From a virus (taxonomy: Duplodnaviria; Heunggongvirae; Uroviricota; Caudoviricetes), in IMG/VR virus record IMGVR_UViG_2524023210_000007, positions 80,429-132,315 of that record: a DNA stretch of 51,887 nt. One strand, 5' to 3'. A program made the translations under genes and the position numbers. The notes under the pieces are model-generated. The model was given only the letters and a program-made list of their open reading frames with translations. It did not search any database and had not been told where the DNA came from. Below, piece by piece: positions 31,998-46,626 of the stretch. Numbering within the stretch: the first letter of the stretch is position 1; the number at the start of each line of letters is the position of its first letter.

Positions 31998-32072
31998 GCC
32001 GGCGTGGCGCAACGGTAGCGCAGCGCTCTCGTAAGGCGAAGGTCGTCAGTTCAAATCTGACCGTCGGCACCA
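31998..32072 (+). tRNA. tRNA-Thr(CGT)
   Basis: Cloverleaf, loop CT-CGT-AA, encoded CCA. Confidence 0.9.
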
Positions 32073-32073
32073 T

Positions 32074-32149
32074 GCTCCGTTAGCTCAGTGGTAGAGCAGC
32101 GCTTTTGTAAAGCGCAGGCCGCAGGTTCGATCCCGTGCACGGAGCACCA
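32074..32149 (+). tRNA. tRNA-Thr(TGT)
   Basis: GCGCT-TT TGT AA-AGCGC; irregular T stem; CCA. Confidence 0.85.
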
Positions 32150-32179
32150 ATCCAACTTGCAAGATTTTCTTTCAGGTTC

Positions 32180-32254
32180 GCTTCCATCGTTCAGCCGGCA
32201 GGACACCGCTTTGGTAAGGCGGCGACGCAGGTTCGAGCCCTGCTGGAAGCACCA
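32180..32254 (+). tRNA. tRNA-Thr(GGT)
   Basis: CCGCT-TT GGT AA-GGCGG; CCA. Confidence 0.9.
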
Positions 32255-32256
32255 TC

Positions 32257-32335
32257 GCGCCGGTAGCCCAACATGGCAGGAGGCATCTCGTTCAGGCCGA
32301 GAGCAGTGCAGGTTCGAATCCTGCTCGGCGCACCA
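32257..32335 (+). tRNA. tRNA-Leu(CAG), short variable loop
   Basis: TCTCG-TT CAG GC-CGAGA; 5-nt variable region; CCA. Confidence 0.85.
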
Positions 32336-32339
32336 ATTC

Positions 32340-32416
32340 GCCCGTGTAGCCCAATCGGTAGAGGCGGCGCTTTCAAACGGCGCGCGTTCGCGGTTCGAAT
32401 CCGTGCACGGGCACCA
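32340..32416 (+). tRNA. tRNA-Leu(CAA), short variable loop
   Basis: GCGCT-TT CAA AC-GGCGC; 5-nt variable region; CCA. Confidence 0.85.
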
Positions 32417-32421
32417 TCTTC

Positions 32422-32505
32422 GCGCGGCTGGCGGAATGAAGACGCAGCAGGTTTAAACCCTGCCGGCCAACGGTCGTCTCGGTTCAAGTCCGAGGCCGCG
32501 CACCA
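32422..32505 (+). tRNA. tRNA-Leu(TAA)
   Basis: GCAGG-TT TAA AC-CCTGC; long variable arm; CCA. Confidence 0.9.
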
Positions 32506-32701
32506 GATTGCGAAGGCGTCGAAACTCCACCGCAGATCGGCGAGATGAATATCTCTGGATAGTGGAGACGCATCGCCTCGATGAGGTTTTCAAGCGCTGC
32601 ACGTCCTGCGCCTGGTGGCACGTCGCTGGGCCCCCACAACGCGAACTCCTTAGGTGTTTCGTTGCAAAACACCGTGAGGGCAAGGAAAGGCTCTTCGGCC
32701 A

Positions 32702-33022
32702 TCACGCGCTCTTCGGCAACGTCTTGATCTTGGCGAGGTCGTCGGCAAGTTTCTGCTTGCTCTGCCAAAGATCGTAGTCCGTCTGCATGTCGGCCCACAA
32801 GTCGGGGCCGTTCCCGAAGAACTTGCCGAGACGCTGCGCCATGTCGGGCGAGATCGGAGACGGATTGTCCTCGCTCATGATGCGACCGAGCGTGACTTTT
32901 GTGGTTCCGATCAGGGGAGCGGCCGACGAAGCATTCAATCCGGCGTCGGCAAGCGCCGTTGCCAGGATGCGGCCAGGATGCGTCGGGGGGCGCTGGCGCG
33001 GGCCTGCCTTGTATTCAGCCAT
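32702..33022 (-). CDS. higA: HigA-family antitoxin (XRE HTH)
   Basis: PPTHPGRIL, ISPDMAQRLGKFFGNGPDLWADMQTDYDL; follows higB. Confidence 0.9.
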   Translation of the reverse strand: MAEYKAGPRQRPPTHPGRILATALADAGLNASSAAPLIGTTKVTLGRIMSEDNPSPISPDMAQRLGKFFGNGPDLWADMQTDYDLWQSKQKLADDLAKIKTLPKSA

Positions 33023-33059
33023 GACGATCTCCGGGGTGACGGGAGGGGCTTCGCGCCCC

Positions 33060-33338
33060 TCAGTGATATTGTTCAAAGTCGACACGATCGGCCTCTCCTT
33101 TATCAAATTCGAAGGTTATCCGCCAAGCGCCGGTTACCCAGATGGAATAGCGAACCGGCTTGAATTGCTTCAGGGGGTGCGTGTTGAACCCCGGAAGGTC
33201 GAGCGCCTGTAAGTTCGTCGCCCTGTTGAGAACGTCAAGCCGTTCAATGACTTTGGCTTGGAGCTTGGAGTCGATCCGGGCGGTGTGGCCCTTCTCGAAA
33301 AGCTCTTTGAGACCTTTGTGTTTGAAGCTCTTAATCAT
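33060..33338 (-). CDS. higB: HigB (RelE-superfamily) toxin
   Basis: MIKSFKHKGLKELFEKG...HPLK...YSIWVTGAWRITFEF...VDFEQYH. Confidence 0.92.
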   Translation of the reverse strand: MIKSFKHKGLKELFEKGHTARIDSKLQAKVIERLDVLNRATNLQALDLPGFNTHPLKQFKPVRYSIWVTGAWRITFEFDKGEADRVDFEQYH

Positions 33339-33348
33339 GAGAAGGAGC

Positions 33349-33386
33349 GTAACGCAATGTGTTACTCAAGTAAAGCGTTTTGTTAC
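33349..33386. promoter_or_regulatory. Two palindromic operator boxes upstream of higBA
   Basis: GTAACGCAATGTGTTAC (33349-33365) and GTAAAGCGTTTTGTTAC (33370-33386). Confidence 0.65.
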
Positions 33387-33403
33387 TTTCCTGAGGTTAT
33401 TTT

Positions 33404-33478
33404 GCGCGCTTAGCTCAGCGGTAGAGCGCCTGTTTTACACACAGGATGTCGGCCGTTCGATCCGGTCAGCGCGCACCA
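33404..33478 (+). tRNA. tRNA-Val(TAC)
   Basis: CCTGT-TT TAC AC-ACAGG; CCA. Confidence 0.92.
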
Positions 33479-33661
33479 AAGGTTGAGGCGATGGAATCGA
33501 AGGGCAGGCATGCTCGAGGCATCCACGTCTCCTCGAAGCCAGATTGATCCGCGCGCGGCGGGGTCACGCCCAGGTCTGCGCGCGCGATGACAACATCTGT
33601 GTCCCGTGGTTCTGGCTGAAGGTCGCCGGGTCGTCCCCGGTCGCTAACGGGACTCGAATTT

Positions 33662-33736
33662 GCGTCCGTAGCTCATCAGCAGAGCGCCGCTGTGACATGG
33701 CGGAGGCGGCAGGGGCGGCACCTGCCGGACGCACCA
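33662..33736 (+). tRNA. tRNA-Val(GAC), non-canonical T-loop
   Basis: CCGCT-GT GAC AT-GGCGG; T-loop GGCGGCA; CCA. Confidence 0.8.
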
Positions 33737-33737
33737 G

Positions 33738-34013
33738 TTATCTCTCGGACAGTCGCGCGATGAGGGCAGCCGTAACGGCATCCTGCACCGACGTAGAAAG
33801 GCGCTGCTGCGGAATGAGGGCTGATGGTTTCTGACGATCGATATAGTGGTCAGCAGCCTCTTCAGAGCCGAGCAACTTAACAAGCGATGCTCGAAATTTC
33901 GCGGAGTCTTTTTTCGGTCTCACATCTTCGGCTGGCCGGGCAGTGCTGGTGCCGAGCTGGAAGTACCGTTTGTCTTGGTTCGCCGGTTGGGCGAAGGGCT
34001 GATAAACCTGCAT
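33738..34013 (-). CDS. Hypothetical protein antisense to the array
   Basis: 91 aa filling the gap between two tRNAs. Confidence 0.45.
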   Translation of the reverse strand: MQVYQPFAQPANQDKRYFQLGTSTARPAEDVRPKKDSAKFRASLVKLLGSEEAADHYIDRQKPSALIPQQRLSTSVQDAVTAALIARLSER

Positions 34014-34072
34014 GGTATCTCCGAAAGGGGGCCTAATAATATCGCAAGCGTGCGGAGTTGCGAGTCTAATTT

Positions 34073-34147
34073 CCACCTTTAGCTCAGCAGCAGAGCGTCC
34101 GGCCGATAACCGGGAGGTCCGTGGGGCAGCACCACGAAGGTGGACCA
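34073..34147 (+). tRNA. tRNA-Ile(GAT), non-canonical T-loop
   Basis: TCCGG-CC GAT AA-CCGGG; T-loop GGCAGCA; CCA. Confidence 0.8.
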
Positions 34148-34218
34148 TCATCTGGAAGAGGCCGAAAATGCACTCTCAATTCAAACCGGCGCGGCTCGCC
34201 GCCGCAACCATCGACCCT

Positions 34219-34309
34219 GGATCGGTAGCCAAGTTGGTCGACGGCCCGGAACTTTTAATTCCGCGGGACATGCGCCCCGCCGTGAGTTCGAATCTCACCC
34301 GATCCTCCA
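34219..34309 (+). tRNA. tRNA-Lys(TTT) with long variable arm
   Basis: CGGAA-CT TTT AA-TTCCG; 18-nt variable arm; T73; CCA. Confidence 0.8.
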
Positions 34310-34313
34310 TCAT

Positions 34314-34402
34314 GGACGAGTAGCCAAGCGGTCGACGGCATCGGCTTCTTAACCCGACGGGCCTTGAGCCCCGCGCTGGTTCGAATCCAGCCTCGTTCAC
34401 CA
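34314..34402 (+). tRNA. tRNA-Lys(CTT) with long variable arm
   Basis: Loop TT CTT AA; variable arm CGGGCCTTGAGCCCCGC; CCA. Confidence 0.8.
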
Positions 34403-34405
34403 ATG

Positions 34406-34564
34406 TCAGTTTTCGCGAGGCAGTTTTGCGATTGCTCGCCCGAGCATAATCTCGATGCACCGTCCGCAGACCAGTTCGCCGTTGCCGGCCGGCGGCGCGA
34501 GAACGACCAGTTGATCTGGTTCGAATTCTTCTTCGCAGTGATCACAGCGAGGGCTTTCGAGCAT
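34406..34564 (-). CDS. Small zinc-finger protein antisense to the array
   Basis: CDHC...CGRC, 52 aa, fits between tRNAs. Confidence 0.5.
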   Translation of the reverse strand: MLESPRCDHCEEEFEPDQLVVLAPPAGNGELVCGRCIEIMLGRAIAKLPREN

Positions 34565-34579
34565 CCCACATTTACCTAC

Positions 34580-34663
34580 GCGCTTGTGGCGGAATTCGGT
34601 AGACGCAGCGTCTTGAGAGGGCGCCGGGAAACCATGCCGGTTCGAGTCCGGCCTAGCGCACCA
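34580..34663 (+). tRNA. tRNA-Leu(GAG)
   Basis: GCGTC-TT GAG AG-GGCGC; variable arm; CCA. Confidence 0.9.
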
Positions 34664-34684
34664 TCTTTGCAGAAAATGCAAATT

Positions 34685-34760
34685 GCCCATGTCCCCATCT
34701 GGTGAAGGGACCGGATTGTCGATCCGGCAAAGGCGAGTTCGATCCTCGTCATGGGCGCCA
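34685..34760 (+). tRNA. tRNA-Asp(GTC)
   Basis: CCGGA-TT GTC GA-TCCGG; G73; CCA. Confidence 0.9.
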
Positions 34761-34764
34761 ATTC

Positions 34765-34841
34765 CGGCGTGTAGCGCAGCCAGGTAGCGCACCTCGTTCG
34801 GGACGAGGGGGCCGCAGGTTCAAATCCTGCTACGCCGACCA
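34765..34841 (+). tRNA. tRNA-Pro(CGG)
   Basis: CCTCG-TT CGG GA-CGAGG; CCA. Confidence 0.92.
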
Positions 34842-34847
34842 ATTCAC

Positions 34848-34923
34848 GGTCCTGGAGCCAGATGGGAAGGCCGGCCGCTCATAACGGCCAGATGAGGGTG
34901 TTCGATCCACCCCAGGACTACCA
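34848..34923 (+). tRNA. tRNA-Met or Ile2 (CAT)
   Basis: GGCCG-CT CAT AA-CGGCC; CCA. Confidence 0.8.
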
Positions 34924-34954
34924 TGTAAACTGCGGACCCGAGAGGAGGTCGACG

Positions 34955-35491
34955 ATGTTTCACGCCAATCCGGCGCTTATCTTGAACGCCGACTTCCAAC
35001 CATTGAGTTATTTTCCGCTCTCGCTCTTCAGTTGGGAGGAGGCGGTGCGCTCGGTGGTGAAGGGATCGCATGTCGTGGTCGCGGAATACGACCAGGTCGT
35101 CCGCAGCCCCTCGACGGTGATGCGGCTCCCCTCTGTGATCGCGCTGCGCGAGTACGTGCGGCCGCCGGCTCGAGTCGCCTTCACGCGGTTCAACGTCTTT
35201 CTCCGCGATCGCTTCCGCTGCCAATATTGCGGCGAGCAGCATCTGCGGGGCGAGTTGACATTCGACCACGTCGTGCCGCGCGCGATGGGCGGCAAGACCG
35301 AATGGACCAACATTGTTGCGGCCTGCAGCCCCTGCAACACGCGCAAGGACAAGCAGGTTTGGAAGCCCTTGCGGGTGCCGTTGGAGCCGACACAGTTCGA
35401 TCTGATGGCGGCGCAGCGGCTCTTTCCGCCGAACTTCCTGCACGAATCCTGGCTCGACTTCCTGTATTGGGATTCCGAGCTCGAGAAGTAA
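34955..35491 (+). CDS. HNH endonuclease
   Basis: GGAGG RBS; LILNADFQPL N-terminus; CQYCG...TFDHVVPR..GG...WTNIVAACSPCNTRK. Confidence 0.92.
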   Translation: MFHANPALILNADFQPLSYFPLSLFSWEEAVRSVVKGSHVVVAEYDQVVRSPSTVMRLPSVIALREYVRPPARVAFTRFNVFLRDRFRCQYCGEQHLRGELTFDHVVPRAMGGKTEWTNIVAACSPCNTRKDKQVWKPLRVPLEPTQFDLMAAQRLFPPNFLHESWLDFLYWDSELEK

Positions 35492-35493
35492 AC

Positions 35494-35531
35494 GCGCCGG
35501 CGGCGACGAGTTTGTGTCCGCCGGCGCACCA
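35494..35531 (+). other. Hairpin ending in ACCA (acceptor-stem mimic)
   Basis: GCGCCGGCGG / CCGCCGGCGC 10-bp stem followed by ACCA. Confidence 0.55.
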
Positions 35532-35532
35532 T

Positions 35533-35608
35533 CACCACGTAGCTCAACTGGATGAGCACGACCCTCCGAAGGTCGAGGATGTAGGTTCGAGTCCTATCGT
35601 GGTGGCCA
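35533..35608 (+). tRNA. tRNA-Arg(CCG)
   Basis: CGACC-CT CCG AA-GGTCG; CCA. Confidence 0.9.
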
Positions 35609-35609
35609 T

Positions 35610-35697
35610 GGGGGAGTAATCGGCGGGGACGCCGGCGCCGTTTTGAAAACGGCTGGGTGCGCCAGCACTGCGGATCAAGACCAGCACTCCTCCGCCA
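35610..35697 (+). tRNA. tRNA-Ser(TGA), atypical D and T arms
   Basis: GCCGT-TT TGA AA-ACGGC; variable arm; G73; CCA. Confidence 0.75.
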
Positions 35698-35701
35698 TTT
35701 T

Positions 35702-35788
35702 GGGCAGTGAACCGGCCGGGCGGCCGGCCTCCGTTGGAAGCGGAGTGGGCGCCTCGGCGCTGCGGATCGAGCCCGCCGCTGTCCGCCA
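35702..35788 (+). tRNA. tRNA-Ser(GGA), atypical D and T arms
   Basis: CTCCG-TT GGA AG-CGGAG; variable arm; G73; CCA. Confidence 0.75.
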
Positions 35789-35792
35789 CCTT

Positions 35793-35880
35793 GGAGAGTC
35801 AACCGGACAGGCGCGCCGGCACGGCTTCGAAAACCGATGGCACCGCAAGGTGTGAGGCTCATGTCCTCGGCTCTCCGCCA
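35793..35880 (+). tRNA. tRNA-Ser(CGA), atypical D and T arms
   Basis: Loop TT CGA AA; variable arm GGCACCGCAAGGTGT; G73; CCA. Confidence 0.7.
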
Positions 35881-35916
35881 CGCTGCTCCCATAATCGTGG
35901 CCTATCCGCGATCGCC

Positions 35917-36261
35917 ATGAGCATTTCGCGACGAGGCTTTCTCGGTGCCGCCCTGGGCTTGCTCGGTGGTGCAGGTGCTGCACGATCGGCGCCGGCGAGC
36001 GGCGGTGTTGTTCTGGGCATCGACGGCGGCGCTGTCCTCGGCGAGGCCGGTACAGAACTCGTCATGCCGCTGCCCGGCCATCCTGCTGGCGGCTTTCCGG
36101 TACCGGATCACATTGCGGATGCCCTGCGCGGCTGGCTCACTCGGGGTGAGATCCTGAAGGCCGAGCGCGCGATCTATTCTGTCTACGGCGGATGTACCCG
36201 GGACATGCCTGAGGAGTTGGAAGCCTCGGCACCTATCGCAGGGTCGAGCACCGGGCGCTGA
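35917..36261 (+). CDS. Hypothetical protein with twin-arginine signal-like N-terminus
   Basis: MSISRRGFLGAALGLLGG; 3' end overlaps next tRNA. Confidence 0.45.
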   Translation: MSISRRGFLGAALGLLGGAGAARSAPASGGVVLGIDGGAVLGEAGTELVMPLPGHPAGGFPVPDHIADALRGWLTRGEILKAERAIYSVYGGCTRDMPEELEASAPIAGSSTGR

Positions 36262-36320
36262 TCAGGCTCATAACCTGATGCCGAAAGGCAAAGTCGGTTC
36301 GATTCCGACCCCTGCAACCA
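36237..36320 (+). tRNA. tRNA-Met(CAT), initiator-like, long variable arm
   Basis: C1xA72 mismatch; TCAGG-CT CAT AA-CCTGA; GCC-GAAA-GGC variable arm; CCA. Confidence 0.75.
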
Positions 36321-36337
36321 ACTTGGAGGTGAATGCC

Positions 36338-36550
36338 ATGGACGCGCTGCTTCAGTTCTTCGCTTACGAGCACCTGCCGCCGCACCTCCAGGCGGTCAGT
36401 GCGCCATTCGGCGATCTGGCACGGGAAATGGCGCGATCGCTTCCGACCAATCCGGAAAGTGCGACGGCCATGCGGAAACTCCTCGAGGCGAAGGACTGCG
36501 CCGTTCGTGCCGTGCTCTTCAAGCCATTGTCGTCAGCCGTCATGGACTAA
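36338..36550 (+). CDS. Conserved small helical phage protein
   Basis: GGAGG RBS; QFFAYEHLP.HLQ.VS.PF..LA...RKLLEAKDCAVRA. Confidence 0.75.
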   Translation: MDALLQFFAYEHLPPHLQAVSAPFGDLAREMARSLPTNPESATAMRKLLEAKDCAVRAVLFKPLSSAVMD

Positions 36551-36569
36551 CGACAAGATCTCGAATTGG

Positions 36570-36728
36570 GCCGGGTGGAGCGACCGGACAATGCGGGGAC
36601 GTTTTGAGCCAAGGATCCGCACCCCAATCTCTGCTGCCAGGCGGCGCCTGCAAGCCGGGCCCGCAACCCCTGATTCAGTTCGGGGGCTCTGGATAGGGAT
36701 GGAGGGCGCGAGATCGCCTGGCAGCGGA
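36570..36728 (+). ncRNA. Candidate structured RNA in array spacer
   Basis: 13-bp stem CTGCTGCCAGGCG/CGCCTGGCAGCGG enclosing further hairpins. Confidence 0.4.
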
Positions 36729-36741
36729 CTTCTTCATTCTC

Positions 36742-36826
36742 GGGTAACGCCAAGTCTGGTGACTGAGCGGGGCTGTAAACCCTGCGCCTTAGCGCATGCC
36801 GTGTTCGATTCACGGGTTACCCACCA
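36742..36826 (+). tRNA. tRNA-Tyr(GTA)
   Basis: CGGGG-CT GTA AA-CCCTG; variable arm; CCA. Confidence 0.85.
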
Positions 36827-36834
36827 TCTTCAAC

Positions 36835-36908
36835 GCGGACAAAAGATTACGGCAGTCGGCGAGTATGCCATGCTCGCAGCGGCGGTTCGACTCCGCCTGT
36901 CCGCACCA
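36835..36908 (+). tRNA. tRNA-Gly(GCC), degenerate D arm
   Basis: CGAGT-AT GCC AT-GCTCG; A73; CCA. Confidence 0.7.
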
Positions 36909-36916
36909 ATTTTTGA

Positions 36917-37016
36917 GGGGGCGCGCACCAGATGCCGGTCGCTCCGGCTGATGGAAAGGCGCGAGCCGGAGTTGATCGCCCGGTGTGAGGTGGTGCGAAT
37001 CCATCCGCCCTGTCCA
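36917..37016 (+). ncRNA. tRNA-like RNA with enlarged anticodon arm
   Basis: Acceptor GGGGGCG/CGCCCTG, T arm GGTGG-TGCGAAT-CCATC, 9-bp arm with 14-nt loop, TCCA end. Confidence 0.5.
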
Positions 37017-37021
37017 AATTC

Positions 37022-37096
37022 GCCTGGATAGCTCAGTGGTAGAGCGGCGTCTTGAAGCGGCGCGCGCCGGTGGTTCGATCCCATCTCCAGGCACCA
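37022..37096 (+). tRNA. tRNA-Phe(GAA)
   Basis: GCGTC-TT GAA GC-GGCGC; CCA. Confidence 0.9.
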
Positions 37097-37103
37097 CGAC
37101 AAC

Positions 37104-37175
37104 GGGGAGCGCGCAAGGGCGCAGCTGATGTTTGCACCATCGGCGCGGTCGGGGCGGTACCGACGCTCTCCACCA
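37104..37175 (+). tRNA. tRNA-Ala(TGC), shortened D arm, non-canonical T-loop
   Basis: G3:U70; loop TT TGC AC; T-loop GGCGGTA; CCA. Confidence 0.7.
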
Positions 37176-37187
37176 TCATCACCAGCA

Positions 37188-37251
37188 CGACCTGCCGATT
37201 TTCGGTCGACCTGCACTTTGGCGGTCGACCTGCCGGTTTGGCTGGACCTGC
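37188..37251 (+). repeat. Four SGACCTGC repeats, period 19/19/18 nt
   Basis: Copies at 37188, 37207, 37226, 37244. Confidence 0.8.
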
Positions 37252-37255
37252 ATAT

Positions 37256-37341
37256 TGCTCGGTGGGGGAATTGGTAGACCCTCGCGACTGTTAATCGCGC
37301 GCCGAAAGGCACTGCAGGTTCGAAGCCTGCCCGAGCAGCCA
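37256..37341 (+). tRNA. tRNA-Asn(GTT) with long variable arm
   Basis: CGCGA-CT GTT AA-TCGCG; GCC-GAAA-GGC variable arm; G73; CCA. Confidence 0.8.
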
Positions 37342-37394
37342 ACCGACAAGGTCCCGAATCGGCGCATCAAATGATGCGGCAAAATGGGACCAAT

Positions 37395-37469
37395 GCTGCC
37401 ATCGTCTAGTGGCCAGGATGCCCGGTTCTCAGCCGGTCGACGCCGGTTCGAGTCCGGCTGGCAGTGCCA
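37395..37469 (+). tRNA. tRNA-Glu(CTC)
   Basis: Loop TT CTC AG; G73; CCA. Confidence 0.88.
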
Positions 37470-37474
37470 ATTCG

Positions 37475-37655
37475 AAGCGAGCGCCAGGACGCGCGAGGTG
37501 GAGCGCCGGTCAGTGCCGGCAGCTTCTCAGCCGCGCGCGGATCGGCGCAGCGCTGGACGTGATCTCGGGGCGGACCTGGTCGATCGGCAGGTCTCAGGCG
37601 AAGCGCGCCGCGCGCATCGAGACGAGAAGTCGAGGGGAAACCTCGGCGAGGCGAG
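37475..37655 (+). ncRNA. Candidate structured RNA in array spacer
   Basis: CGAGGT/ACCTCG closing stem, GCCGG hairpin, GCTTCTC/GAGAAGT and GCGCGCGG/CCGCGCGC stems. Confidence 0.45.
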
Positions 37656-37660
37656 AGTTT

Positions 37661-37739
37661 GCCCGCGTAACCGGCTCTGCCTACGAAGCAGAAGTACCGT
37701 AACTGGAGCATGCAGGTTCGACTCCTGCCGCGGGCTCCA
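37661..37739 (+). tRNA. tRNA-Arg(ACG) lacking a D arm
   Basis: Acceptor GCCCGCG/CGCGGGC; 8-nt linker; TCTGC-CT ACG AA-GCAGA; 19-nt variable region; canonical T arm; CCA. Confidence 0.7.
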
Positions 37740-37745
37740 AATCAT

Positions 37746-37824
37746 CAGCGTGTAGGGGAGCCTGGTCGTCCCTACCTGCCTTGGAAGCAGGGGATCGGTG
37801 GTTCGAATCCACCCACGCTGACCA
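37746..37824 (+). tRNA. tRNA-Pro(TGG)
   Basis: CCTGC-CT TGG AA-GCAGG; CCA. Confidence 0.88.
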
Positions 37825-37902
37825 TCATCTGCCCGTTGATAACATCGCAAGAAGTTCTTCTGCGATCGTTGAGACGTGCGATCTATCCCGCGGGCTTGAT
37901 TT

Positions 37903-37983
37903 TTTGGGCGAGCCCCAGGCGTTCGGTTATCCAACCATTGATGGAAAAGCCCCGATCGCCGTTCTTACGTTCGCCCTCAAAGA
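37903..37983 (+). ncRNA. Y-RNA-like module 1 (minimal)
   Basis: GGGCGAG-CCCCAG...TTCGGTTA 5' arm and CCCGAT...CGTTCGCCC 3' arm, shared with modules 2-4. Confidence 0.6.
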
Positions 37984-37984
37984 T

Positions 37985-38117
37985 ATCGGACGAGCCCCAG
38001 AAGTTCGGTTACCCTTGCTAAGGTAGAGGTCGGCGGTTCGAATCCGTCTCGGGAGAAATCCCGATAGCTCAGTGGTAGAGCGCTAAATCCCGATCTTCGC
38101 TCTCACGTTCGTCCGGT
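37985..38117 (+). ncRNA. YrlA-like Y RNA with circularly permuted tRNA domain
   Basis: Shared stem plus T arm (GGCGG-TTCGAAT-CCGTC), acceptor stem closed by GAAA, then D arm (GCTC-AGTGGTA-GAGC); upstream of Ro60. Confidence 0.8.
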
Positions 38118-38134
38118 CACCTTTGAGGTTTTCG

Positions 38135-38263
38135 ACAGACTGGTTTGCGGGACCGAGCCCCAGAGGTTCGCTTATCTGGATATAGCAGGTTCGACTCCCG
38201 CCATGGCCGCAAGGCCGTGTAAACGCGATCTCGCCATCACGCTCGGCCCCGCAAACCGGTCTG
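38135..38263 (+). ncRNA. Y-RNA-like module 3 (T arm plus acceptor mimic, no D arm)
   Basis: Long outer stem; GCAGG-TTCGACT-CCCGC then CATGGCC-GCAA-GGCCGTG. Confidence 0.7.
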
Positions 38264-38278
38264 CCATCTCGGAGGCCC

Positions 38279-38371
38279 ATCAACTCGAACGAGCCCCAGG
38301 AATTCGGTTATCAGCAATCTTGAAACTTGCACCGAACCCCGATTTCCGCTCTCCCGTTCGTTCGAGTTGAT
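38279..38371 (+). ncRNA. Y-RNA-like module 4 (minimal)
   Basis: ATCAACTCGAACG/CGTTCGAGTTGAT outer stem; shared internal motifs. Confidence 0.65.
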
Positions 38372-38399
38372 CGGCCTCACCAACTCAGAGGAGGCCAAC

Positions 38400-40025
38400 A
38401 TGAAGTATGCAGGACTGATCGCGGCTGACGTGCCGCAGAGCGAGCCGCTGAATGCGCGGCAGGTCAAGAACAACGCCGGTGGTTTCGTATTCGCGATCGA
38501 CAATTGGGCGCGGCTCGACCGCTTCCTGATCCTCGGCAGCGATGCGCCGACCTATTACCAGACCGCGCGGGCGCTGACCCGCGAGAACGCCAAGGTCGTC
38601 GACGAGTGCTACGCCGCGGATCCGGCCCGCACCGTCGCGCGTACGGTCGAAATCTCTGATCAGGGCAGGGCGCCGAAGAACGATCCGGCCATCTTCGTCC
38701 TGGCCATCGGCGCCGTGCATGCCGACCAGAAGGTGCGCCAGCTCGCGTTGGCGGCTGTCCCGAAGATCTGCCGGACCGCGACGCACTTGTTCCAGTTCGT
38801 CAAGGCGGCGCGATCGCTCGGCCGTGGCTGGGGACGGTCGCTGAAGACGGCGATCGCGAACTGGTACAACTCGAAGTCCCTGGATGACGTGGCGTACCAG
38901 GCCATCAAATACCGCGAGCGCGAGGGCTACTCGCACAAGCGGCTCCTCCAGACAGCCCACCCGGCCGCCTCGGAGTCGCCGGCGCGGATCGCGCTCTATC
39001 GCTGGATGCGCGGGCTCGATCCCGGCGGAGAACTCCCGGCGATCGTGCAGGCTCACCTGAAGGCGATGACTCCGGATTTGGGGAAGGGGCATGTCCTCGA
39101 CCTCATCAAGGAGCACCGCCTGCCTTGGGAAGCGCTGCCGACCGAGTACAATGGAGATCCGGATGCATGGCGCGCCATGCTCCCGACTCTTGGGCTCGGC
39201 GCCATGGTCCGCAATCTCGGCAATATGTCCCGGCTCGGCGCCATCAAGCCGCTGTCGGAGTCCGAGGCCGTCGTGGTCAGCCGGTTGTCCGATGAATCCG
39301 CAATCCGGAAATCCCGCCTGCACCCGTTCTCGATCCTGTTGGCCATGGCAGTCTATTCGTCCGGCCGCGGTGTTCGGGGTGCTGGTGCATGGGACCCGTC
39401 CCGGGCCGTGGTCGATGCGCTCGACGGCGCCTTCTACAAGGCGTTCGCCAACGTGCAGGCGAGCGGCAAGCGGATTCTCATCGCGCTGGACGTTTCGGGT
39501 TCGATGGGCTCTCCGATCATGGGATCTCCGATCTCCTGCCGCGATGCCACGGCGGCACTGGCACTGGTCACCATGTCGACTGAGAAGCAGACCCATGTGG
39601 TCGGCTTCACATCGGCGGGTCACGCTCAGCGGCGCTACGGCGGGCAATGGGGTGGCGGCGAGGCTGGGTTGTCGCCTTTGGCGATCTCACCGCGCCAGCG
39701 CCTGACCGACGCCGTGAGAGCGGTGTCAAATCTGCCTTTCGGTGGAACGGACTGTGCCCTTCCGATGCTGTACGCGCTGGAGAAGGGCCTCGAGGTCGAT
39801 GCCTTCTATGTCTATACCGATAGCGAGACTTGGGCCGGAGACGTCCATCCGGTCAAGGCCCTCCAGCAGTATCGGCAGAAGACGGGCATTCCAGCCAAGC
39901 TGGTGGTGGTCGGCATGACGTCGACCGGCTTCTCGATCGCGGATCCGAGCGACGCCGGCATGCTTGATGTCGTCGGCTTCGACGCCGCGGCACCGCTCGT
40001 CATGGCGGATTTCGTTCGCGGCTAA
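38400..40025 (+). CDS. rsr: Ro60/TROVE-domain RNA-binding protein
   Basis: GAGGAGG RBS; QVKNNAGGFVF, GRAPKNDPAIFVLA, KYREREGYSH, vWA MIDAS ALDVSGSM, LDVVGFD. Confidence 0.93.
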   Translation: MKYAGLIAADVPQSEPLNARQVKNNAGGFVFAIDNWARLDRFLILGSDAPTYYQTARALTRENAKVVDECYAADPARTVARTVEISDQGRAPKNDPAIFVLAIGAVHADQKVRQLALAAVPKICRTATHLFQFVKAARSLGRGWGRSLKTAIANWYNSKSLDDVAYQAIKYREREGYSHKRLLQTAHPAASESPARIALYRWMRGLDPGGELPAIVQAHLKAMTPDLGKGHVLDLIKEHRLPWEALPTEYNGDPDAWRAMLPTLGLGAMVRNLGNMSRLGAIKPLSESEAVVVSRLSDESAIRKSRLHPFSILLAMAVYSSGRGVRGAGAWDPSRAVVDALDGAFYKAFANVQASGKRILIALDVSGSMGSPIMGSPISCRDATAALALVTMSTEKQTHVVGFTSAGHAQRRYGGQWGGGEAGLSPLAISPRQRLTDAVRAVSNLPFGGTDCALPMLYALEKGLEVDAFYVYTDSETWAGDVHPVKALQQYRQKTGIPAKLVVVGMTSTGFSIADPSDAGMLDVVGFDAAAPLVMADFVRG

Positions 40026-40031
40026 CGACTC

Positions 40032-40060
40032 GAGCGGGGCGCACGCGCCTCGCTCTTCCA
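40032..40060 (+). other. Hairpin ending in TTCCA after rsr
   Basis: GAGCGGGGCG-CACG-CGCCTCGCTC 10-bp stem. Confidence 0.5.
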
Positions 40061-40061
40061 T

Positions 40062-40137
40062 CGGGGATTAGCTTAGTGGCTTAAAGCACCGCGCTCTGAC
40101 CGCGGCACCGTCGGTTCGAATCCGGCATCCCCTGCCA
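40062..40137 (+). tRNA. tRNA-Gln(CTG)
   Basis: CCGCG-CT CTG AC-CGCGG; CCA. Confidence 0.88.
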
Positions 40138-40144
40138 ATTTTAT

Positions 40145-40218
40145 CGCGCGAGGTCCGGGCGGTTAGGACGCGGTCTGCAAAACCGTGAAGACGGGTTCGA
40201 CTCCCGTTCGCGCATCCA
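40145..40218 (+). tRNA. tRNA-Cys(GCA)
   Basis: GCGGT-CT GCA AA-ACCGT; U73; CCA. Confidence 0.85.
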
Positions 40219-40265
40219 TGGAACAAAAACGCCAAAATCGAAGATTTTTTTCAGATCTTTTGCAC

Positions 40266-40341
40266 GCGCTCGTGGGCCAACTGGACGGCCAGCGGATTTC
40301 TACTCCGCCGCATGAGGGTTCGAGTCCTTCCGAGCGCGCCA
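40266..40341 (+). tRNA. tRNA-Arg(TCT)
   Basis: GCGGA-TT TCT AC-TCCGC; CCA. Confidence 0.9.
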
Positions 40342-40342
40342 A

Positions 40343-40588
40343 CTAATCGGACAGATGTCTTGCGAGATGTTTCTCGATGATGTCGACCAGGCTCAGATCG
40401 TCGGGCCAATCGTTGTCGCCGTGCTCGGCGCAGATCCGGCGCAAAGCTGCGATCGCTTTTCCGCGCTCGATGAGCCAATCATGATTGTCCCGCTCCTCAC
40501 CGCCGAGATTTGTCAGGGCCTCGAGCAGCATCTTGCGCCATGCCGCCCGGCTGCCTTCGACGTAGGCTCGTTCCTGGTCTGGGCTCAT
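40343..40588 (-). CDS. Hypothetical protein antisense to the array
   Basis: 81 aa exactly filling the Arg-Ser gap; AAAGGAAC RBS. Confidence 0.6.
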   Translation of the reverse strand: MSPDQERAYVEGSRAAWRKMLLEALTNLGGEERDNHDWLIERGKAIAALRRICAEHGDNDWPDDLSLVDIIEKHLARHLSD

Positions 40589-40608
40589 TGATTTGTTCCT
40601 TTCGAATT

Positions 40609-40695
40609 GGAGAGGTGGCCGAGCGGTAAGGCAGCGCCTTGCTAAGGCGCCGAGTCCTTCGGGATGCGCAGGTTCGATCCCTGTCCTCTCCGCCA
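40609..40695 (+). tRNA. tRNA-Ser(GCT)
   Basis: GCGCC-TT GCT AA-GGCGC; variable arm; G73; CCA. Confidence 0.92.
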
Positions 40696-40879
40696 ATCCA
40701 TGAAGCGGCCGACTGCGGTGTCGGTGCGCGGGGCCAACCCAGTTGCAAACTTTTGCTGATCGCGTGCCCATGCAAAGAGTTCGCTATCTTCAAAATAGAC
40801 GTCGAGTTTTCCGTCGACGATGATCTCATCGGAACGGCGAACATATTCTGTCATGGTCCCCATCAGAAATCCTTCCATA

Positions 40880-40954
40880 GCGGGCTTGGCGTACTGGGGT
40901 GCGCGCTTGGCTTCCATCCAAGAGGTAGGTGTTCGATCCACCTAGCCCGCACCA
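40880..40954 (+). tRNA. tRNA-Gly(TCC)
   Basis: CTTGG-CT TCC AT-CCAAG; A73; CCA. Confidence 0.8.
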
Positions 40955-40958
40955 ACAA

Positions 40959-41216
40959 TCAGATCTCGACAGCGAAGCCGGCCTTATCGCCATAGCCGAT
41001 GCGCAGCGGAGTGCCGCAAAGGGTGTCGACTTTTCTGGCCTCGAGATTGAAAGTCGCTTCCGATCCCATCGCGCGATATTCGAGTTTGATGGCGCTGTTG
41101 AATTGACGCGCCGCCGTCTCGTCGGCGAAACGAATATCGACCGCGGCCGGCATTTCGAGATTGTGCTGGCGACAGAACTGCTGGAGCGCCAGCATCATTT
41201 TCGACAGATCTTTCAT
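40959..41216 (-). CDS. Hypothetical protein antisense to the array
   Basis: 85 aa filling the Gly-Glu gap; its GGGAG RBS is the antisense of the Glu acceptor stem. Confidence 0.55.
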   Translation of the reverse strand: MKDLSKMMLALQQFCRQHNLEMPAAVDIRFADETAARQFNSAIKLEYRAMGSEATFNLEARKVDTLCGTPLRIGYGDKAGFAVEI

Positions 41217-41219
41217 ATT

Positions 41220-41294
41220 GCTCCCTTCGTCTACTGGCTAGGATATCACTCTTTCACAGTGAGGAAACGGGTTCGATCCCCGTAGGGAGCGCCA
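41220..41294 (+). tRNA. tRNA-Glu(TTC)
   Basis: TCACT-CT TTC AC-AGTGA; G73; CCA. Confidence 0.92.
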
Positions 41295-41299
41295 TCAAT

Positions 41300-41388
41300 T
41301 CGGGGATGACCGAGCCAGGTTAAGGTACCCGCCTTTGAAGCGGTGGTCGGCGATCGCCGCGCGCGTTCAAATCGCGCTCCCCGGGCCA
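41300..41388 (+). tRNA. tRNA-Gln(TTG) with long variable arm
   Basis: Loop CT TTG AA; variable stem CGGC-GATC-GCCG; CCA. Confidence 0.75.
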
Positions 41389-41885
41389 GCACCTGGCCGC
41401 CAATCGCCGATGCCGCGTTCGTCGCCGAATCGGTCGCGCACGCCGACCATGTCGAGCCTCAGAGGCCGGTGCCTGCGCTTGCCGCTGGTGGAGATTTGTT
41501 CCTCGTACTGGCTTCCGAGCATGGTGCAGTCACGCCAGTCTTCGTCATCGCCGGCGAGATCCGGGTGCTGTTGCCACATTCTGCAGGTGTTGCCGTCGTT
41601 CGGATGCATGCACTCGGCATCGCTTCCTTCCGGTTCACGTGCCAGCTTGGCGTCAGATTGCAGATCCGGAGGCAATCCTTTCTGCGCCCGCGACAGCGCG
41701 GTTACGAGTCCACCAATTCGGTCGAGGTTGTACTTTCGCTCCGCCCAGATCGGGTTGACGCCTCCGCGTCCCATGATGGCGTCCTGATCTACGGGAGCAC
41801 CGCAAGCGATCATGCCGTCCTGGCGATAGCACGCGCGAGCGCAGGTGCCGCACCGTTTCATCGTATCGGTTTTCAACGTGATCAT
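41367..41885 (-). CDS. Cys-rich hypothetical protein antisense to the array
   Basis: CGTCARAC...C; fills the Gln-Met gap. Confidence 0.5.
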   Translation of the reverse strand: MITLKTDTMKRCGTCARACYRQDGMIACGAPVDQDAIMGRGGVNPIWAERKYNLDRIGGLVTALSRAQKGLPPDLQSDAKLAREPEGSDAECMHPNDGNTCRMWQQHPDLAGDDEDWRDCTMLGSQYEEQISTSGKRRHRPLRLDMVGVRDRFGDERGIGDWRPGAGPGSAI

Positions 41886-41958
41886 CGCAGGGCCTCTCGG
41901 GTAGGGTCTCGGTCTCATAAATCGGGATAGGGCGGTTCGAAGCCGCTACCTGCGACCA
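41886..41958 (+). tRNA. tRNA-Met(CAT), degenerate
   Basis: CGCAGGG/ACCTGCG; loop CT CAT AA; CCA. Confidence 0.65.
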
Positions 41959-41965
41959 TCCATTC

Positions 41966-42040
41966 TCCGACTTCGTCTATCAGCTAAGGCGCTCGGTTGT
42001 GGACCGGGAAAACGCGGGGCAGCACCGCGAGTCGGGACCA
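41966..42040 (+). tRNA. tRNA-His(GTG) without G-1, with A73
   Basis: CTCGG-TT GTG GA-CCGGG; T-loop GGCAGCA; CCA. Confidence 0.8.
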
Positions 42041-42045
42041 TTCTT

Positions 42046-42119
42046 GGGAGTGTCGTCTAGTGGTAAGACGCCGGCCTCCAAACCCGGCTACGTGGGTTCG
42101 ATTCCTGCCGCTCCTGCCA
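42046..42119 (+). tRNA. tRNA-Trp(CCA)
   Basis: Loop CT CCA AA; G73; CCA. Confidence 0.85.
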
Positions 42120-42842: not shown

Positions 42843-43379
42843 TCAGAATTCAGGGGACGCATCAATCAGGTCGAGTTCGGCCTGGCGGAGAGAAGCCCAC
42901 GCCTGCTCCAGGAGCGATGCCGGCGCCTTCGTCAGGATCTCGAGCGTGGCGCGCTTCTCCGGCAGATACGTCTTGGCGAAGCCTGGATTGTGCTTTGCGA
43001 TTGTCGACGTGTTGCTGATCAGGTCTGCGCACTTCACACCTTGGCTTTCGGCCCCAGCCGTCGCGAGCCGAGAGCGGTCGATCTCCTTCCGGCGCGCGCG
43101 GTTCAAGCCCGGCGTTGGCGGCGTATCGGTGAGATAGTGCACGATCAGCGCGACGCCGGATCCGAACTTTGCGCAGATCTCCGGGATTGAGGCATCGGTG
43201 TCTTCCACGGTGTCGTGAAGCCACGCCGCGGCGATCGCGGTCTCGGACATGCCGGCGCGCTCCACGATGCGGGCAACTTCCTCGAGATGAACGAAGTACG
43301 GTTCGCCGGTGTATTCGCGCAGCTGCTTCACGTGCTTCTTCCGCGCGAATTCGCGAGCTCGGAAGACCAGATCATTCAT
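42843..43379 (-). CDS. HD-domain hydrolase, Mesh1 / small alarmone hydrolase-like
   Basis: H..QLR..TGEPY.VH, LHDTVEDT, LTD, VKCADLISN: RelA/SpoT hydrolase motifs, no synthetase domain. Confidence 0.85.
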   Translation of the reverse strand: MNDLVFRAREFARKKHVKQLREYTGEPYFVHLEEVARIVERAGMSETAIAAAWLHDTVEDTDASIPEICAKFGSGVALIVHYLTDTPPTPGLNRARRKEIDRSRLATAGAESQGVKCADLISNTSTIAKHNPGFAKTYLPEKRATLEILTKAPASLLEQAWASLRQAELDLIDASPEF

Positions 43380-45637: not shown

Positions 45638-46624
45638 TCACGGCGAGACGTCTCCAAAGAGATCTCCGTCGCCGCGCCGACGCTTGGCCGTGCGTTTAGC
45701 TTTCAGGTTCGCGTCGTATTCGGAGAACGGGATCGATCGATAGAGGCCGGTGACAGCCCAGCGTTGGAAGCGCTTGAGGTCGCGTCGCGCCTGGTCGAAT
45801 GGCATCGGGTAGGGCAGGATGCCGCGCTCGACCATGCGGTTGAAACGGTGGTGGATACGTTCCCAGGTCTCGCGCTTGTCGAACCCAACCAGCATGTAGG
45901 CCATCAGATGCTTTGCAGGCACGCCGGCAGCCTCGAGTATGTCGACGCCGTGGAAGAAGACCTCTTCGTCTTTCAGGTTGTCCCAGGCGGTGTAGAGGCG
46001 CCGGCGCCGGAACTCATTGCAGCGGTATTCGACGCCAGCGACCGCCGCCGCGACCTCGGAAGTCATGGCGCGGACATTGATCCCCTGGCTAAAACAGACC
46101 TTGAAACCGCCATCGCGGATCTCAGCGATCCGGCCCTGCCAATCGGGTTGGCCGAAGAAATCGTTGTCGAGCAGGTGCAGGTGTTTCGGTGTAGAGCCGC
46201 CGCGCCAGACCTGCGCAATGGTCGCGGCCTGCCGCGGCTTGCCTTCCTTCGTCGGCACGACGCAGAACTTGCATGACAGCCGGCAGCCGCGCTGCGTGAA
46301 ACCGATGCTGGCCTCGAAGTCAGGGTAGAGGCTGTAGTCGAGGCCGGCGGCGTCGCCGATCAGCCTCTCGACTGTGACTGTGCTGTCAGTGCCGGTCCCC
46401 CCGACAATGGCCCCAGGGAACTCGTTCATGAAACGGGCCAACCGGTCGGCCGAGAACTTGAAGATGGCACTGCCATAAACGACGTCGTAGGGCGGTTCGA
46501 AGAGCTCTCGCCGGACACGGCGGGTGAAGTGCACCTGGTCGCCGCGGGTGCGATGGTGAGCGGCCAGCCGCATGAGCGCCAGGTTGGGGAGCGCGCCGTC
46601 GATCTGGGTGACCCGGACGTGCAT
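45638..46624 (-). CDS. Radical SAM protein (phage family)
   Basis: CRLSCKFC (CxxxCxxC), LPNLALMRL, YGSAIF, LLDNDFF. Confidence 0.88.
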   Translation of the reverse strand: MHVRVTQIDGALPNLALMRLAAHHRTRGDQVHFTRRVRRELFEPPYDVVYGSAIFKFSADRLARFMNEFPGAIVGGTGTDSTVTVERLIGDAAGLDYSLYPDFEASIGFTQRGCRLSCKFCVVPTKEGKPRQAATIAQVWRGGSTPKHLHLLDNDFFGQPDWQGRIAEIRDGGFKVCFSQGINVRAMTSEVAAAVAGVEYRCNEFRRRRLYTAWDNLKDEEVFFHGVDILEAAGVPAKHLMAYMLVGFDKRETWERIHHRFNRMVERGILPYPMPFDQARRDLKRFQRWAVTGLYRSIPFSEYDANLKAKRTAKRRRGDGDLFGDVSP

Positions 46625-46626
46625 GG

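Follow-up and report, generated by a model that had tools for sequence, protein, structure and literature searches.

Long variable arms in bacterial tRNAs are normally the mark of leucine, serine, tyrosine and selenocysteine acceptors, a rule used by gene finders, in identity rules and by engineers of orthogonal tRNAs. Why, then, would a phage carry such arms on tRNAs with anticodons for lysine, asparagine, glutamine and methionine? The question is raised by a stretch of 51,887 nucleotides (nt) of the IMG/VR virus record IMGVR_UViG_2524023210_000007 (positions 80,429 to 132,315; hereafter the window), which carries the prophage tRNA array of an alphaproteobacterial soil host with a genome of 9.03 Mb in 246 contigs. 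Our leading reading, to which we would give slightly less than an even chance, is that five tRNAs of this array are working phage tRNAs charged with the amino acids of their own anticodons and that the arm has been kept by selection, most likely against tRNA-cutting enzymes that read the tRNA body.

ARAGORN drew a paired variable arm for exactly five tRNAs, all on the plus strand. tRNA-Lys(UUU) (34219-34309, 91 nt) has U73, an encoded CCA end and an arm of 18 nt (34264-34281), and tRNA-Lys(CUU) (34314-34402, 89 nt), with A73 and G2.U71, has one of 17 nt (34358-34374; C GGGC CUUGA GCCC CGC). The initiator-type tRNA-Met(CAU) (36237-36320, 84 nt) and tRNA-Asn(GUU) (37256-37341, 86 nt) have arms of 14 nt each (36279-36292, U GCC GAAA GGC AAA, and 37300-37313, C GCC GAAA GGC ACU), while the arm of tRNA-Gln(UUG) (41300-41388, 89 nt) spans 16 nt (41345-41360; GGU CGGC GAUC GCCG C). 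All five fold as 7/5 cloverleafs with every stem paired, canonical 7-nt anticodon loops with U33, D stems of 3 to 4 base pairs (bp), D loops of 7 to 12 nt and variable-arm stems of 3 to 4 bp. A preliminary description of this DNA had proposed paired arms of about 14 to 18 nt in these same tRNAs, class I anticodons on bodies with a long paired variable arm and T73 in the Lys(TTT) gene, and the structures agree with it on each of these points. The exact 11-mer GCCGAAAGGCA is found on the plus strand of the window only in the Met arm (36280-36290) and the Asn arm (37301-37311); this shared hairpin could have been copied from one gene of the array to another or have arisen twice, by convergence on a stable GNRA hairpin.

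The same description had likened the D arms of both Lys genes to those of Leu, Ser and Tyr tRNAs. They do read GCC-AAG...GGC as it reported, with a 3-bp stem and a large loop that has two extra bases after GG (20a and 20b), but they are not specific to those three classes. By edit distance, the host D arm closest to that of Lys(CUU) belongs to tRNA-Gln(UUG), at 3 edits, with Ser-type arms next; the D arm of Lys(UUU) lies 6 edits from that of the same host tRNA, tied with several class I tRNAs. On this measure the Lys D arms are of Ser/Gln type, that of Asn is of Leu type (3 edits from host tRNA-Leu) and that of Gln is of Ser type.

Could these genes be decaying pseudogenes or artifacts of the gene finder? 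We consider this extremely improbable. On the general tRNA model of Rfam (RF00005, gathering score 29), Lys(UUU) scored 53.1 bits, Lys(CUU) 50.4, Asn 47.1 and Gln 42.9, placing four of the genes above the threshold for a functional tRNA, and Lys(UUU) reached 89.4 bits on a covariance model of the extra-armed Lys family. The long Met, whose cloverleaf comes from ARAGORN, is the weakest of the five by Rfam score, with only a sub-threshold match of 31.3 bits to the tRNA-Sec model. This low score could be taken for decay, as could the long Gln, which is unique among the closest relatives, and the presence of degenerate tRNA-like remnants elsewhere in the array. Set against decay are the scores of the Lys, Asn and Gln genes on the general model, the pairing of all stems and the compensatory changes seen in orthologs and in hundreds of analogues; for Lys and Asn a pseudogene reading is largely refuted.

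The arms themselves are conserved as structures. Our viral scans, on whose listed matches all family counts given here rest, returned at least 37 armed Lys, at least 116 armed Asn and at least 54 armed Met tRNAs, and the scan for armed Gln returned mostly Ser(UGA) tRNAs with U32, together with 4 distinct armed Gln among the matches listed. The first 20 distinct extra-armed Lys share one geometry, with a 1-nt 5' spacer, a stem of 3 to 5 bp, a tetraloop that is mostly GNRA and a 3' spacer of 3 to 4 nt of the form C-R-Y-C; at least 16 different stems occur among these 20, all fully Watson-Crick paired and in one register. Hairpin content was higher than in shuffled sequences, with z scores of 6.9 in the 37 Lys, 9.3 in the 116 Asn and 4.3 in the 54 Met tRNAs. 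The third pair counted from the loop was formed in 94% of Lys, 94% of Asn and 76% of Met arms, compared to 29%, 35% and 46%, respectively, when the 3' partner was slid by one position. The Lys-family covariance model, aligned to 118 matches, showed ∼86% pairing at the three arm pairs, with 25 to 39 double changes at each, in an alignment that is fitted to structure and has other armed tRNAs among its 118 sequences. In a plain MAFFT alignment the columns of the arm pairs were inconsistent, and the pairs were therefore counted from the loop outward and on the model-fitted alignment; both of these counts lean toward structure, and the shuffle test is the fairer control. Because the arms are conserved and covary in relatives, a chance origin is excluded.

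The geometry is heterogeneous in the Asn, Met and Gln families. In the Lys family it is sharply set off from that of Ser: among the matches listed, the 3' spacer is 3 to 4 nt in 34 of 37 Lys tRNAs compared to 0 to 2 nt in 127 of 133 for Ser, whose stems are also longer. Judged from sequence, the Lys-family arm is Tyr-like and unlike that of Ser.

We compared the array slot by slot with the syntenic proviral arrays L030, L031 and L032 and with the Mesorhizobium-phage group L001 and L034. Both Lys tRNAs are armed in the window, L030, L032, L001 and L034, and in L031 Lys(CUU) is armed and Lys(UUU) was not called. The Asn slot is armed in the window, L031, L001 and L034 and holds a class I tRNA in L030 and L032. 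Gln(UUG) is armed in the window and unarmed in L030 (77 nt), L031 (77 nt), L032 (75 nt) and L034 (74 nt), with none called in L001; another armed Gln was found in the viral contig L004. The initiator Met is armed in the window (loop GAAA) and L032 (loop GAGA) and canonical in L031, L001 and L034; none was called in L030, where Ser(UGA) sits at that slot. It is canonical as well in a relative ∼95% identical from 2025 soil metagenomes, which has a compensatory A:U to G:C change in the anticodon stem of Lys(UUU). In three related proviruses Lys(CUU) is nearly the same in sequence, and in L032 a G:C pair has been replaced by A:U, a compensatory change. Among these tRNAs the arm is conserved in Lys, whereas in the others it is labile in evolution.

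A distant blastn search with the Lys pair led to tRNA-Lys of the cultured Mesorhizobium phage Cp1R7A-A1, whose array has Lys(CUU), Lys(UUU) and Asn tRNAs of 88 nt each, all with paired arms, and Leu(CAA) and Leu(CAG) without arms. The T arm of the window Lys(UUU), GUGAGUUCGAAUCUCAC, is identical to that of the Cp1R7A-A1 Lys tRNAs, and with this T arm and U73 the window gene is nearer to the Mesorhizobium-phage type than to its counterparts in the closest relatives. The arrays are mosaics; a megablast search of the whole array against phage records gave short generic tRNA matches only. Two cultured lysogens carry the design as well. An extra-armed Lys(CUU) is present in Bradyrhizobium embrapense SEMIA 6208, which among named genomes is the nearest with a syntenic array and whose genus may also be that of the host; Pseudaminobacter soli HC19 has two extra-armed Lys and an extra-armed Asn. 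A strict search pattern that joined the Lys D arm to a Lys anticodon matched 25 viral contigs, of which ∼11 hold true extra-armed Lys and one a class I Lys with the same D arm, the remainder being chance matches in non-tRNA sequence. In the host's order this pattern matched 2 of 401 genomes, namely, the host itself and one other in which the match lies in non-tRNA sequence, and with a stricter version there were matches in 6 of 185,579 species genomes. The design is thus widespread in phages, from AT-rich to GC-rich and with hosts in different phyla, and rare in cellular genomes.

This distribution bears on a serious rival, in which the five are working cognate tRNAs and the arm is tolerated as a nearly neutral insertion. 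Phage arrays change quickly and recombine, and if the relevant enzymes ignore the variable region, hairpins could come and go without benefit. The gains and losses at orthologous slots of close relatives (Asn, Gln and initiator Met, and Leu(CAG) in the reverse direction) are what such drift would leave, as are the loose geometry of the Asn, Met and Gln arms and the many other odd tRNA shapes in the array, and the identical GCCGAAAGGCA hairpin in the Met and Asn arms suggests copying within it. Neutrality accounts poorly for a Lys family that keeps its precise geometry and 3' spacer from AT-rich to GC-rich phages while the stems covary, for stems paired far more often than in shuffles and for the rarity of the design among cellular genomes. 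We regard neutral tolerance as possible but on the doubtful side.

A further question is which amino acid these tRNAs carry. The host genome encodes a class I lysyl-tRNA synthetase (LysRS; 456 bits), a glutaminyl-tRNA synthetase (GlnRS; 733 bits) and GatB (529.6 bits); its best match to a class II LysRS, at 175 bits, is below the cutoff, and no asparaginyl-tRNA synthetase (AsnRS, asnS) was found above the cutoff. The Asn(GUU) gene has U1-A72, G73, G10 and G34-U35 together with its Leu-type D arm. U1-A72 is the mark read by the amidotransferase GatCAB, and it is present in 89 of 105 extra-armed phage Asn tRNAs among the matches listed, which were collected with a pattern that did not demand it. 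In a host with GatB and without an AsnRS above the cutoff, these are the marks of a tRNA-Asn of the indirect pathway, and they fit charging by a non-discriminating aspartyl-tRNA synthetase (ND-AspRS) followed by GatCAB. The long Met has the features of a bacterial initiator tRNA-fMet: C1xA72, G2-C71, C3-G70, A11:U24 and A73, with an anticodon arm (UCAGG-CUCAUAA-CCUGA) that is the host initiator's, both having two G:C pairs plus A29-U41. It is the sole initiator-type gene in the array. For Gln(UUG) the picture is mixed. The E. coli GlnRS set comprises a weak 1:72 pair, G73, G2-C71, G3-C70, G10, U35, G36, A37 and U38, and the armed tRNA has U1.G72, G73, G3-C70, U35, G36 and A37, with C2-G71, A10 and A38 instead of G2-C71, G10 and U38.

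Both Lys tRNAs have U35 and U36, and G2.U71 is present in Lys(CUU) only. In the one class I LysRS system studied, that of Borrelia, U35 and U36 are major determinants, base 73 is marginal and G2.U71 is essential (PMC9976931). The G2.U71 rule need not hold in this host, since its own Lys tRNAs lack that pair. Among 33 armed Lys in the matches listed, the discriminator is A in 20, U in 13 and G in none. Taken as class II tRNAs, then, the five have the paired variable arm of more than 10 nt and lack a Leu, Ser or Tyr anticodon with the matching discriminator (A73 for Leu and Tyr, G73 for Ser), base 73 being U, A, A, G and G in Lys(UUU), Lys(CUU), Met, Asn and Gln, respectively. The identity marks of the acceptor end follow the anticodon, not the body.

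The preliminary description had offered non-cognate charging of these tRNAs as one branch. In that case the seryl-, leucyl- or tyrosyl-tRNA synthetase (SerRS, LeuRS or TyrRS) would charge at least one of the five, and Ser, Leu or Tyr would be placed at Lys, Asn or Gln codons, a deliberate or tolerated mistranslation like that of allo-tRNAs and nematode nev-tRNAs. SerRS ignores the anticodon and depends on the long arm (PMC9976931), and allo-tRNAs with non-Ser anticodons insert Ser in E. coli (PMC7609411). Several features of the armed tRNAs point the same way: among the matches listed, 14 of 37 extra-armed Lys start with GGA as tRNA-Ser does, the Ser/Gln-type Lys D arm has C11-G24, the Lys T arm resembles the host Ser T arm, the Asn D arm is of Leu type and Gln(UUG) combines G73 with a Ser-type D arm and a Ser-like arm geometry. 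U73 is also found in some phage Ser tRNAs. However, G73 occurs in none of 33 extra-armed Lys compared to 100 of 118 phage Ser among the matches listed, and the short Lys stems with their 3- to 4-nt 3' spacer are unlike those of Ser. G73 blocks LeuRS and TyrRS, which applies to Asn, and C2-G71, present in Gln, is an antideterminant for E. coli SerRS (PMC9976931). Moreover, the armed Lys and Asn genes are the sole Lys and Asn tRNAs of their arrays, which are otherwise nearly complete sets, so that every phage protein would be hit by miscoding, and the arrays already encode Ser, Leu and Tyr tRNAs of their own. Mischarging is unlikely, in our estimate quite markedly so, and this branch of the earlier proposal is disfavored. 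Since the acceptor marks track the anticodon and the Lys arm geometry is unlike that of Ser, we infer from these sequence marks that cognate charging is the best reading; it is least secure for Gln(UUG). The GGA start and Ser-like T arm of the Lys family hint at descent from a Ser body.

The favored reading, a working and cognately charged tRNA with an arm under selection, would work as follows. A short hairpin in the variable region, with a stem of 3 to 5 bp and usually a GNRA tetraloop, would remodel the tRNA body. The relevant enzymes are expected to read mainly the anticodon and the acceptor end and so to tolerate the extra arm, and the ribosome and EF-Tu already cope with such arms in Leu, Ser and Tyr tRNAs. 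Lys would be charged by the host class I LysRS, Asn by ND-AspRS plus GatCAB and Gln with its own amino acid, and Met would be formylated for initiation. The remodeled body might then make these phage replacement tRNAs poor substrates for tRNases that read the body, whether host defenses or toxins of competitors.

We put forward nuclease evasion by the arm, the other branch of the preliminary description, as a hypothesis only, by analogy with known phage-host conflicts. Body remodeling is a plausible escape route because several defense nucleases cut these very tRNA species. The PARIS nuclease AriB cleaves Lys(UUU), Thr(UGU) and Asn(GUU), and variants of phage T5 tRNAs neutralize it; it seems to contact the D loop and other parts of the tRNA body, and the T5 Lys and Asn tRNAs owe their escape to base changes in the anticodon stem, at the site where AriB cleaves (PMC12409363). 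For a bacterial Schlafen the targets are Lys(UUU) and Met(CAU) (PMC13056530). Retron-Eco7 and Septu cut tRNA-Tyr in the variable arm, and T5 tRNA-Tyr resists retron-Eco7 by means of a distinctive variable loop (PMC13096335).

Several points weigh against this reading. The arm is labile at the very slots compared, being absent from Asn in L030 and L032, from Gln(UUG) in three close relatives and from Met in L031 and the soil relative, which fits weak or episodic selection. GatCAB measures the D loop, and the large Leu-type D loop of the Asn tRNA might disturb it. The Gln(UUG) tRNA lacks the G2-C71, G10 and U38 marks of E. coli GlnRS and joins G73 and C11-G24 to a Ser-like arm, a SerRS-like set. 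U73 is present in 16 of 118 phage Ser among the matches listed, and on its own it does not speak against SerRS. We found no gene of the DUF4435 (AriB-type) or AAA_13 (PrrC/RloC-type) families in the host genome, a result that bears on this lysogen and not on other strains the phage meets. The AriB site UAAUCA is present in host Lys tRNAs and the window Lys tRNAs have UAAUUC and UAACCC, but the arm is not explained by this site, as armed and unarmed phage Lys alike avoid UAAUCA. Finally, the Lys pair and the Asn gene of the soil relative are covered by metatranscriptome contigs, but these could stem from carried-over DNA: their depth is similar over a neighboring open reading frame (ORF), the same contigs reach ∼430x in a DNA run, and they are no evidence of transcription.

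The nuclease question also admits a reading without translation, in which the five serve as decoys or sponges for tRNA-targeting nucleases or tRNA-binding proteins, or act in another tRNA-dependent process. The authors of the AriB study raise possible inhibition of AriB by overexpressed viral tRNAs (PMC12409363), some irregular tRNAs are charged yet unused in translation (PMC5389517), and a Ro60 gene and a Y-RNA-like element lie inside the array. A decoy would need none of the features that these tRNAs keep, namely, an intact 7/5 cloverleaf, canonical anticodon loops, CCA and cognate acceptor marks, and the genes occupy the Lys and Asn slots of a nearly complete set. The term decoy is not supported over that of working replacement tRNA, and we hold this alternative to be very unlikely.

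The arms are not the only unusual shapes in the array. Two Leu genes have lost what the five have gained: tRNA-Leu(CAG) (32257-32335, 79 nt) and tRNA-Leu(CAA) (32340-32416, 77 nt), both on the plus strand, each combine a variable loop of 5 nt with a class I-type D arm and A73. Leu(CAG) is armless in the window and L001 and long in L030, L031 and L032; Leu(CAA) is armless in the window, L031, L032 and the Mesorhizobium group and has a short region (80 nt) in L030. The arm is missing from 71 of the 185 distinct phage Leu tRNAs collected, and A73 is present in all 61 armless Leu that end in CCA. Three tandem Ser-type genes missed by ARAGORN (UGA, GGA and CGA; 35609-35697, 35702-35792 and 35793-35882, plus strand), with G73 and CCA, have an 8/4 fold, in which the acceptor stem has 8 bp and the T stem 4 bp; their 6-bp D stem is capped by a tetraloop and their variable arm is long.

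Such observations allow a broader interpretation in which the whole array is a deliberately shape-swapped set, with armed Lys, Asn, Gln and Met, armless Leu(CAG) and Leu(CAA) and 8/4 Ser, orthogonal to enzymes that read tRNA shape. The shape-reading enzyme could be a host defense or a weapon of the phage or prophage that destroys canonical host tRNAs; if so, the phage's own tRNA set would keep translation going while host tRNAs are destroyed. Armed Lys or Asn and armless Leu do occur together in the unrelated phage arrays L001, L025 and L039. Nearly all loci collected (100 of 107) contain an armed tRNA, which leaves too few to serve as controls for a link between armless Leu and armed Lys or Asn. 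We consider a deliberate swap unlikely.

Other genes of the array depart from the norm in other ways. Val(GAC) (33662-33736), Ile(GAU) (34073-34144) and a His(GUG)-like gene (∼41968-42040), all on the plus strand, have the T loop GGGCAGC or GGGCGGC, not GUUCGAAU; the Ile gene was missed by ARAGORN and scores 43 bits in Rfam. A second Met(CAU) of 73 nt (41886-41958, plus strand) has a reduced D arm and the CGCAGGG acceptor of the armed initiator, but with C1-G72 paired; its role may be that of an elongator or, after lysidine modification, of an Ile2-type tRNA. At 37662-37739 (plus strand) lies a tRNA-like remnant with an intact acceptor stem, a T arm and a UCCA end and no normal D arm; its possible anticodon is ACG (Arg), and L032 has Arg(ACG) at that slot.

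The array as a whole (31998-42119, plus strand) comprises 31 ARAGORN tRNA genes, all with encoded CCA and with small ORFs between them, and at least 5 further tRNA-like genes. It adjoins a siphovirus-type tail module, with minor tail, tape-measure, central tail-fiber (J-like) and tail-fiber genes upstream. Elsewhere in the genome the host has ordinary class I tRNAs for Lys (76 nt), Asn (75 nt) and Gln (75 and 74 nt) and an initiator Met of 77 nt. Two long ARAGORN calls there, Arg(GCG) of 87 nt on contig C20 and Phe(GAA) of 91 nt on contig C119, have no T loop or CCA and look like false calls in GC-rich sequence.

Several protein genes sit within or beside the array. An HNH endonuclease gene (34862-35491, plus strand) lies between Met(CAU) and Arg(CCG); homing endonucleases next to phage tRNA genes drive rearrangements. 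A HigB-like toxin gene of the RelE family (33060-33338, minus strand) is flanked by tRNA genes on the opposite strand and adjoined by a small ORF without a Pfam match (32702-33106, minus strand), and the two (32702-33338) are probably a toxin-antitoxin pair. The Ro60-type gene (TROVE plus Ro60 vWA; 38367-40025, plus strand) is preceded by a YrlA-like Y RNA match (38024-38088, plus strand; 40.6 bits, below gathering), and repeated GAGCCCCAG...GUUCGGUUAUC units and tRNA-like pieces lie in the same stretch (37840-40025, plus strand). Just downstream of the array are an HD_4-domain gene that is ppGpp hydrolase-like (42843-43379, minus strand) and a match, without a Pfam match, to the phage radical-SAM family phrog_9298 (45638-46669, minus strand). 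Near the array of the Mesorhizobium phage, too, lies a (p)ppGpp synthase/hydrolase gene.

If the favored reading is right, a long arm is compatible with class I LysRS, with ND-AspRS and GatCAB, with MetRS and the formylase and probably with GlnRS, and the armed family would offer ready-made scaffolds for tRNA engineering. The arm would also be a second phage route, besides anticodon-loop mutations, to shield tRNAs from defense nucleases. The window is a tractable place to study this, as the synthetase set of the host is known and armed and unarmed near relatives at one slot are natural controls. The cultured phage Cp1R7A-A1 and the lysogens B. embrapense SEMIA 6208 and P. soli HC19 also carry the design.

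How do these tRNAs compare with known systems? Like canonical class II tRNA-Tyr and tRNA-Ser, the five are 7/5 cloverleafs with a paired variable arm. Bacterial and phage tRNA-Tyr share with the Lys family the 1-nt 5' spacer, the 3- to 4-bp stem and the 3- to 4-nt 3' spacer, and canonical tRNA-Ser shares its D arm and acceptor start. The five differ from both in their Lys, Asn, Gln and Met anticodons and in having the discriminators and first pairs of their own amino acids. Closest in setting are the allo-tRNAs and the (8/4) tRNA-Ser and tRNA-His of alphaproteobacterial phage clusters, which combine a long arm with non-Leu/Ser/Tyr anticodons and are found in soil bacteria and phage tRNA clusters, often near toxin-antitoxin genes (PMC5389517; PMC7609411). 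The Ser-type trio at 35609-35882 has the (8/4) tRNA-Ser shape of such clusters (PMC5389517). Allo-tRNAs are 8/4 or 9/3 with a tRNA-Sec-like 6-bp D stem, a tetraloop and Ser identity, whereas the five tRNAs described here are 7/5 with cognate marks and do not belong among them.

Nematode nev-tRNAs are leucylated. They too are class II bodies with unexpected anticodons (Gly and Ile), but they are eukaryotic and are described as decoding an alternative code for leucine (PMC3333845), whereas the marks found here argue for cognate charging. The anti-defense tRNAs of T5 type are, like these may be, phage replacements for species cut by nucleases, including Lys and Asn, and one of them is resistant through its variable loop; the T5 Lys and Asn tRNAs, however, keep the class I shape, with base changes in the anticodon stem and no extra arm. 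The armless Leu(CAG) and Leu(CAA) have a counterpart in the type I, short-loop tRNA-Leu of Streptomyces coelicolor, where a bacterial LeuRS is reported to charge both Leu shapes (PMC6614811); that tRNA-Leu is a cellular actinomycete gene, not part of a phage array with reciprocal gains of arms. In full-text literature searches we found no account of phage tRNAs for Lys, Asn, Gln or Met that are both 7/5 and extra-armed, though an earlier depiction among the alphaproteobacterial phage clusters of Mukai et al. 2017 is possible. Class II-shaped tRNAs with unexpected anticodons are already known, and the window is a new member of a 7/5 armed family of phage tRNAs.

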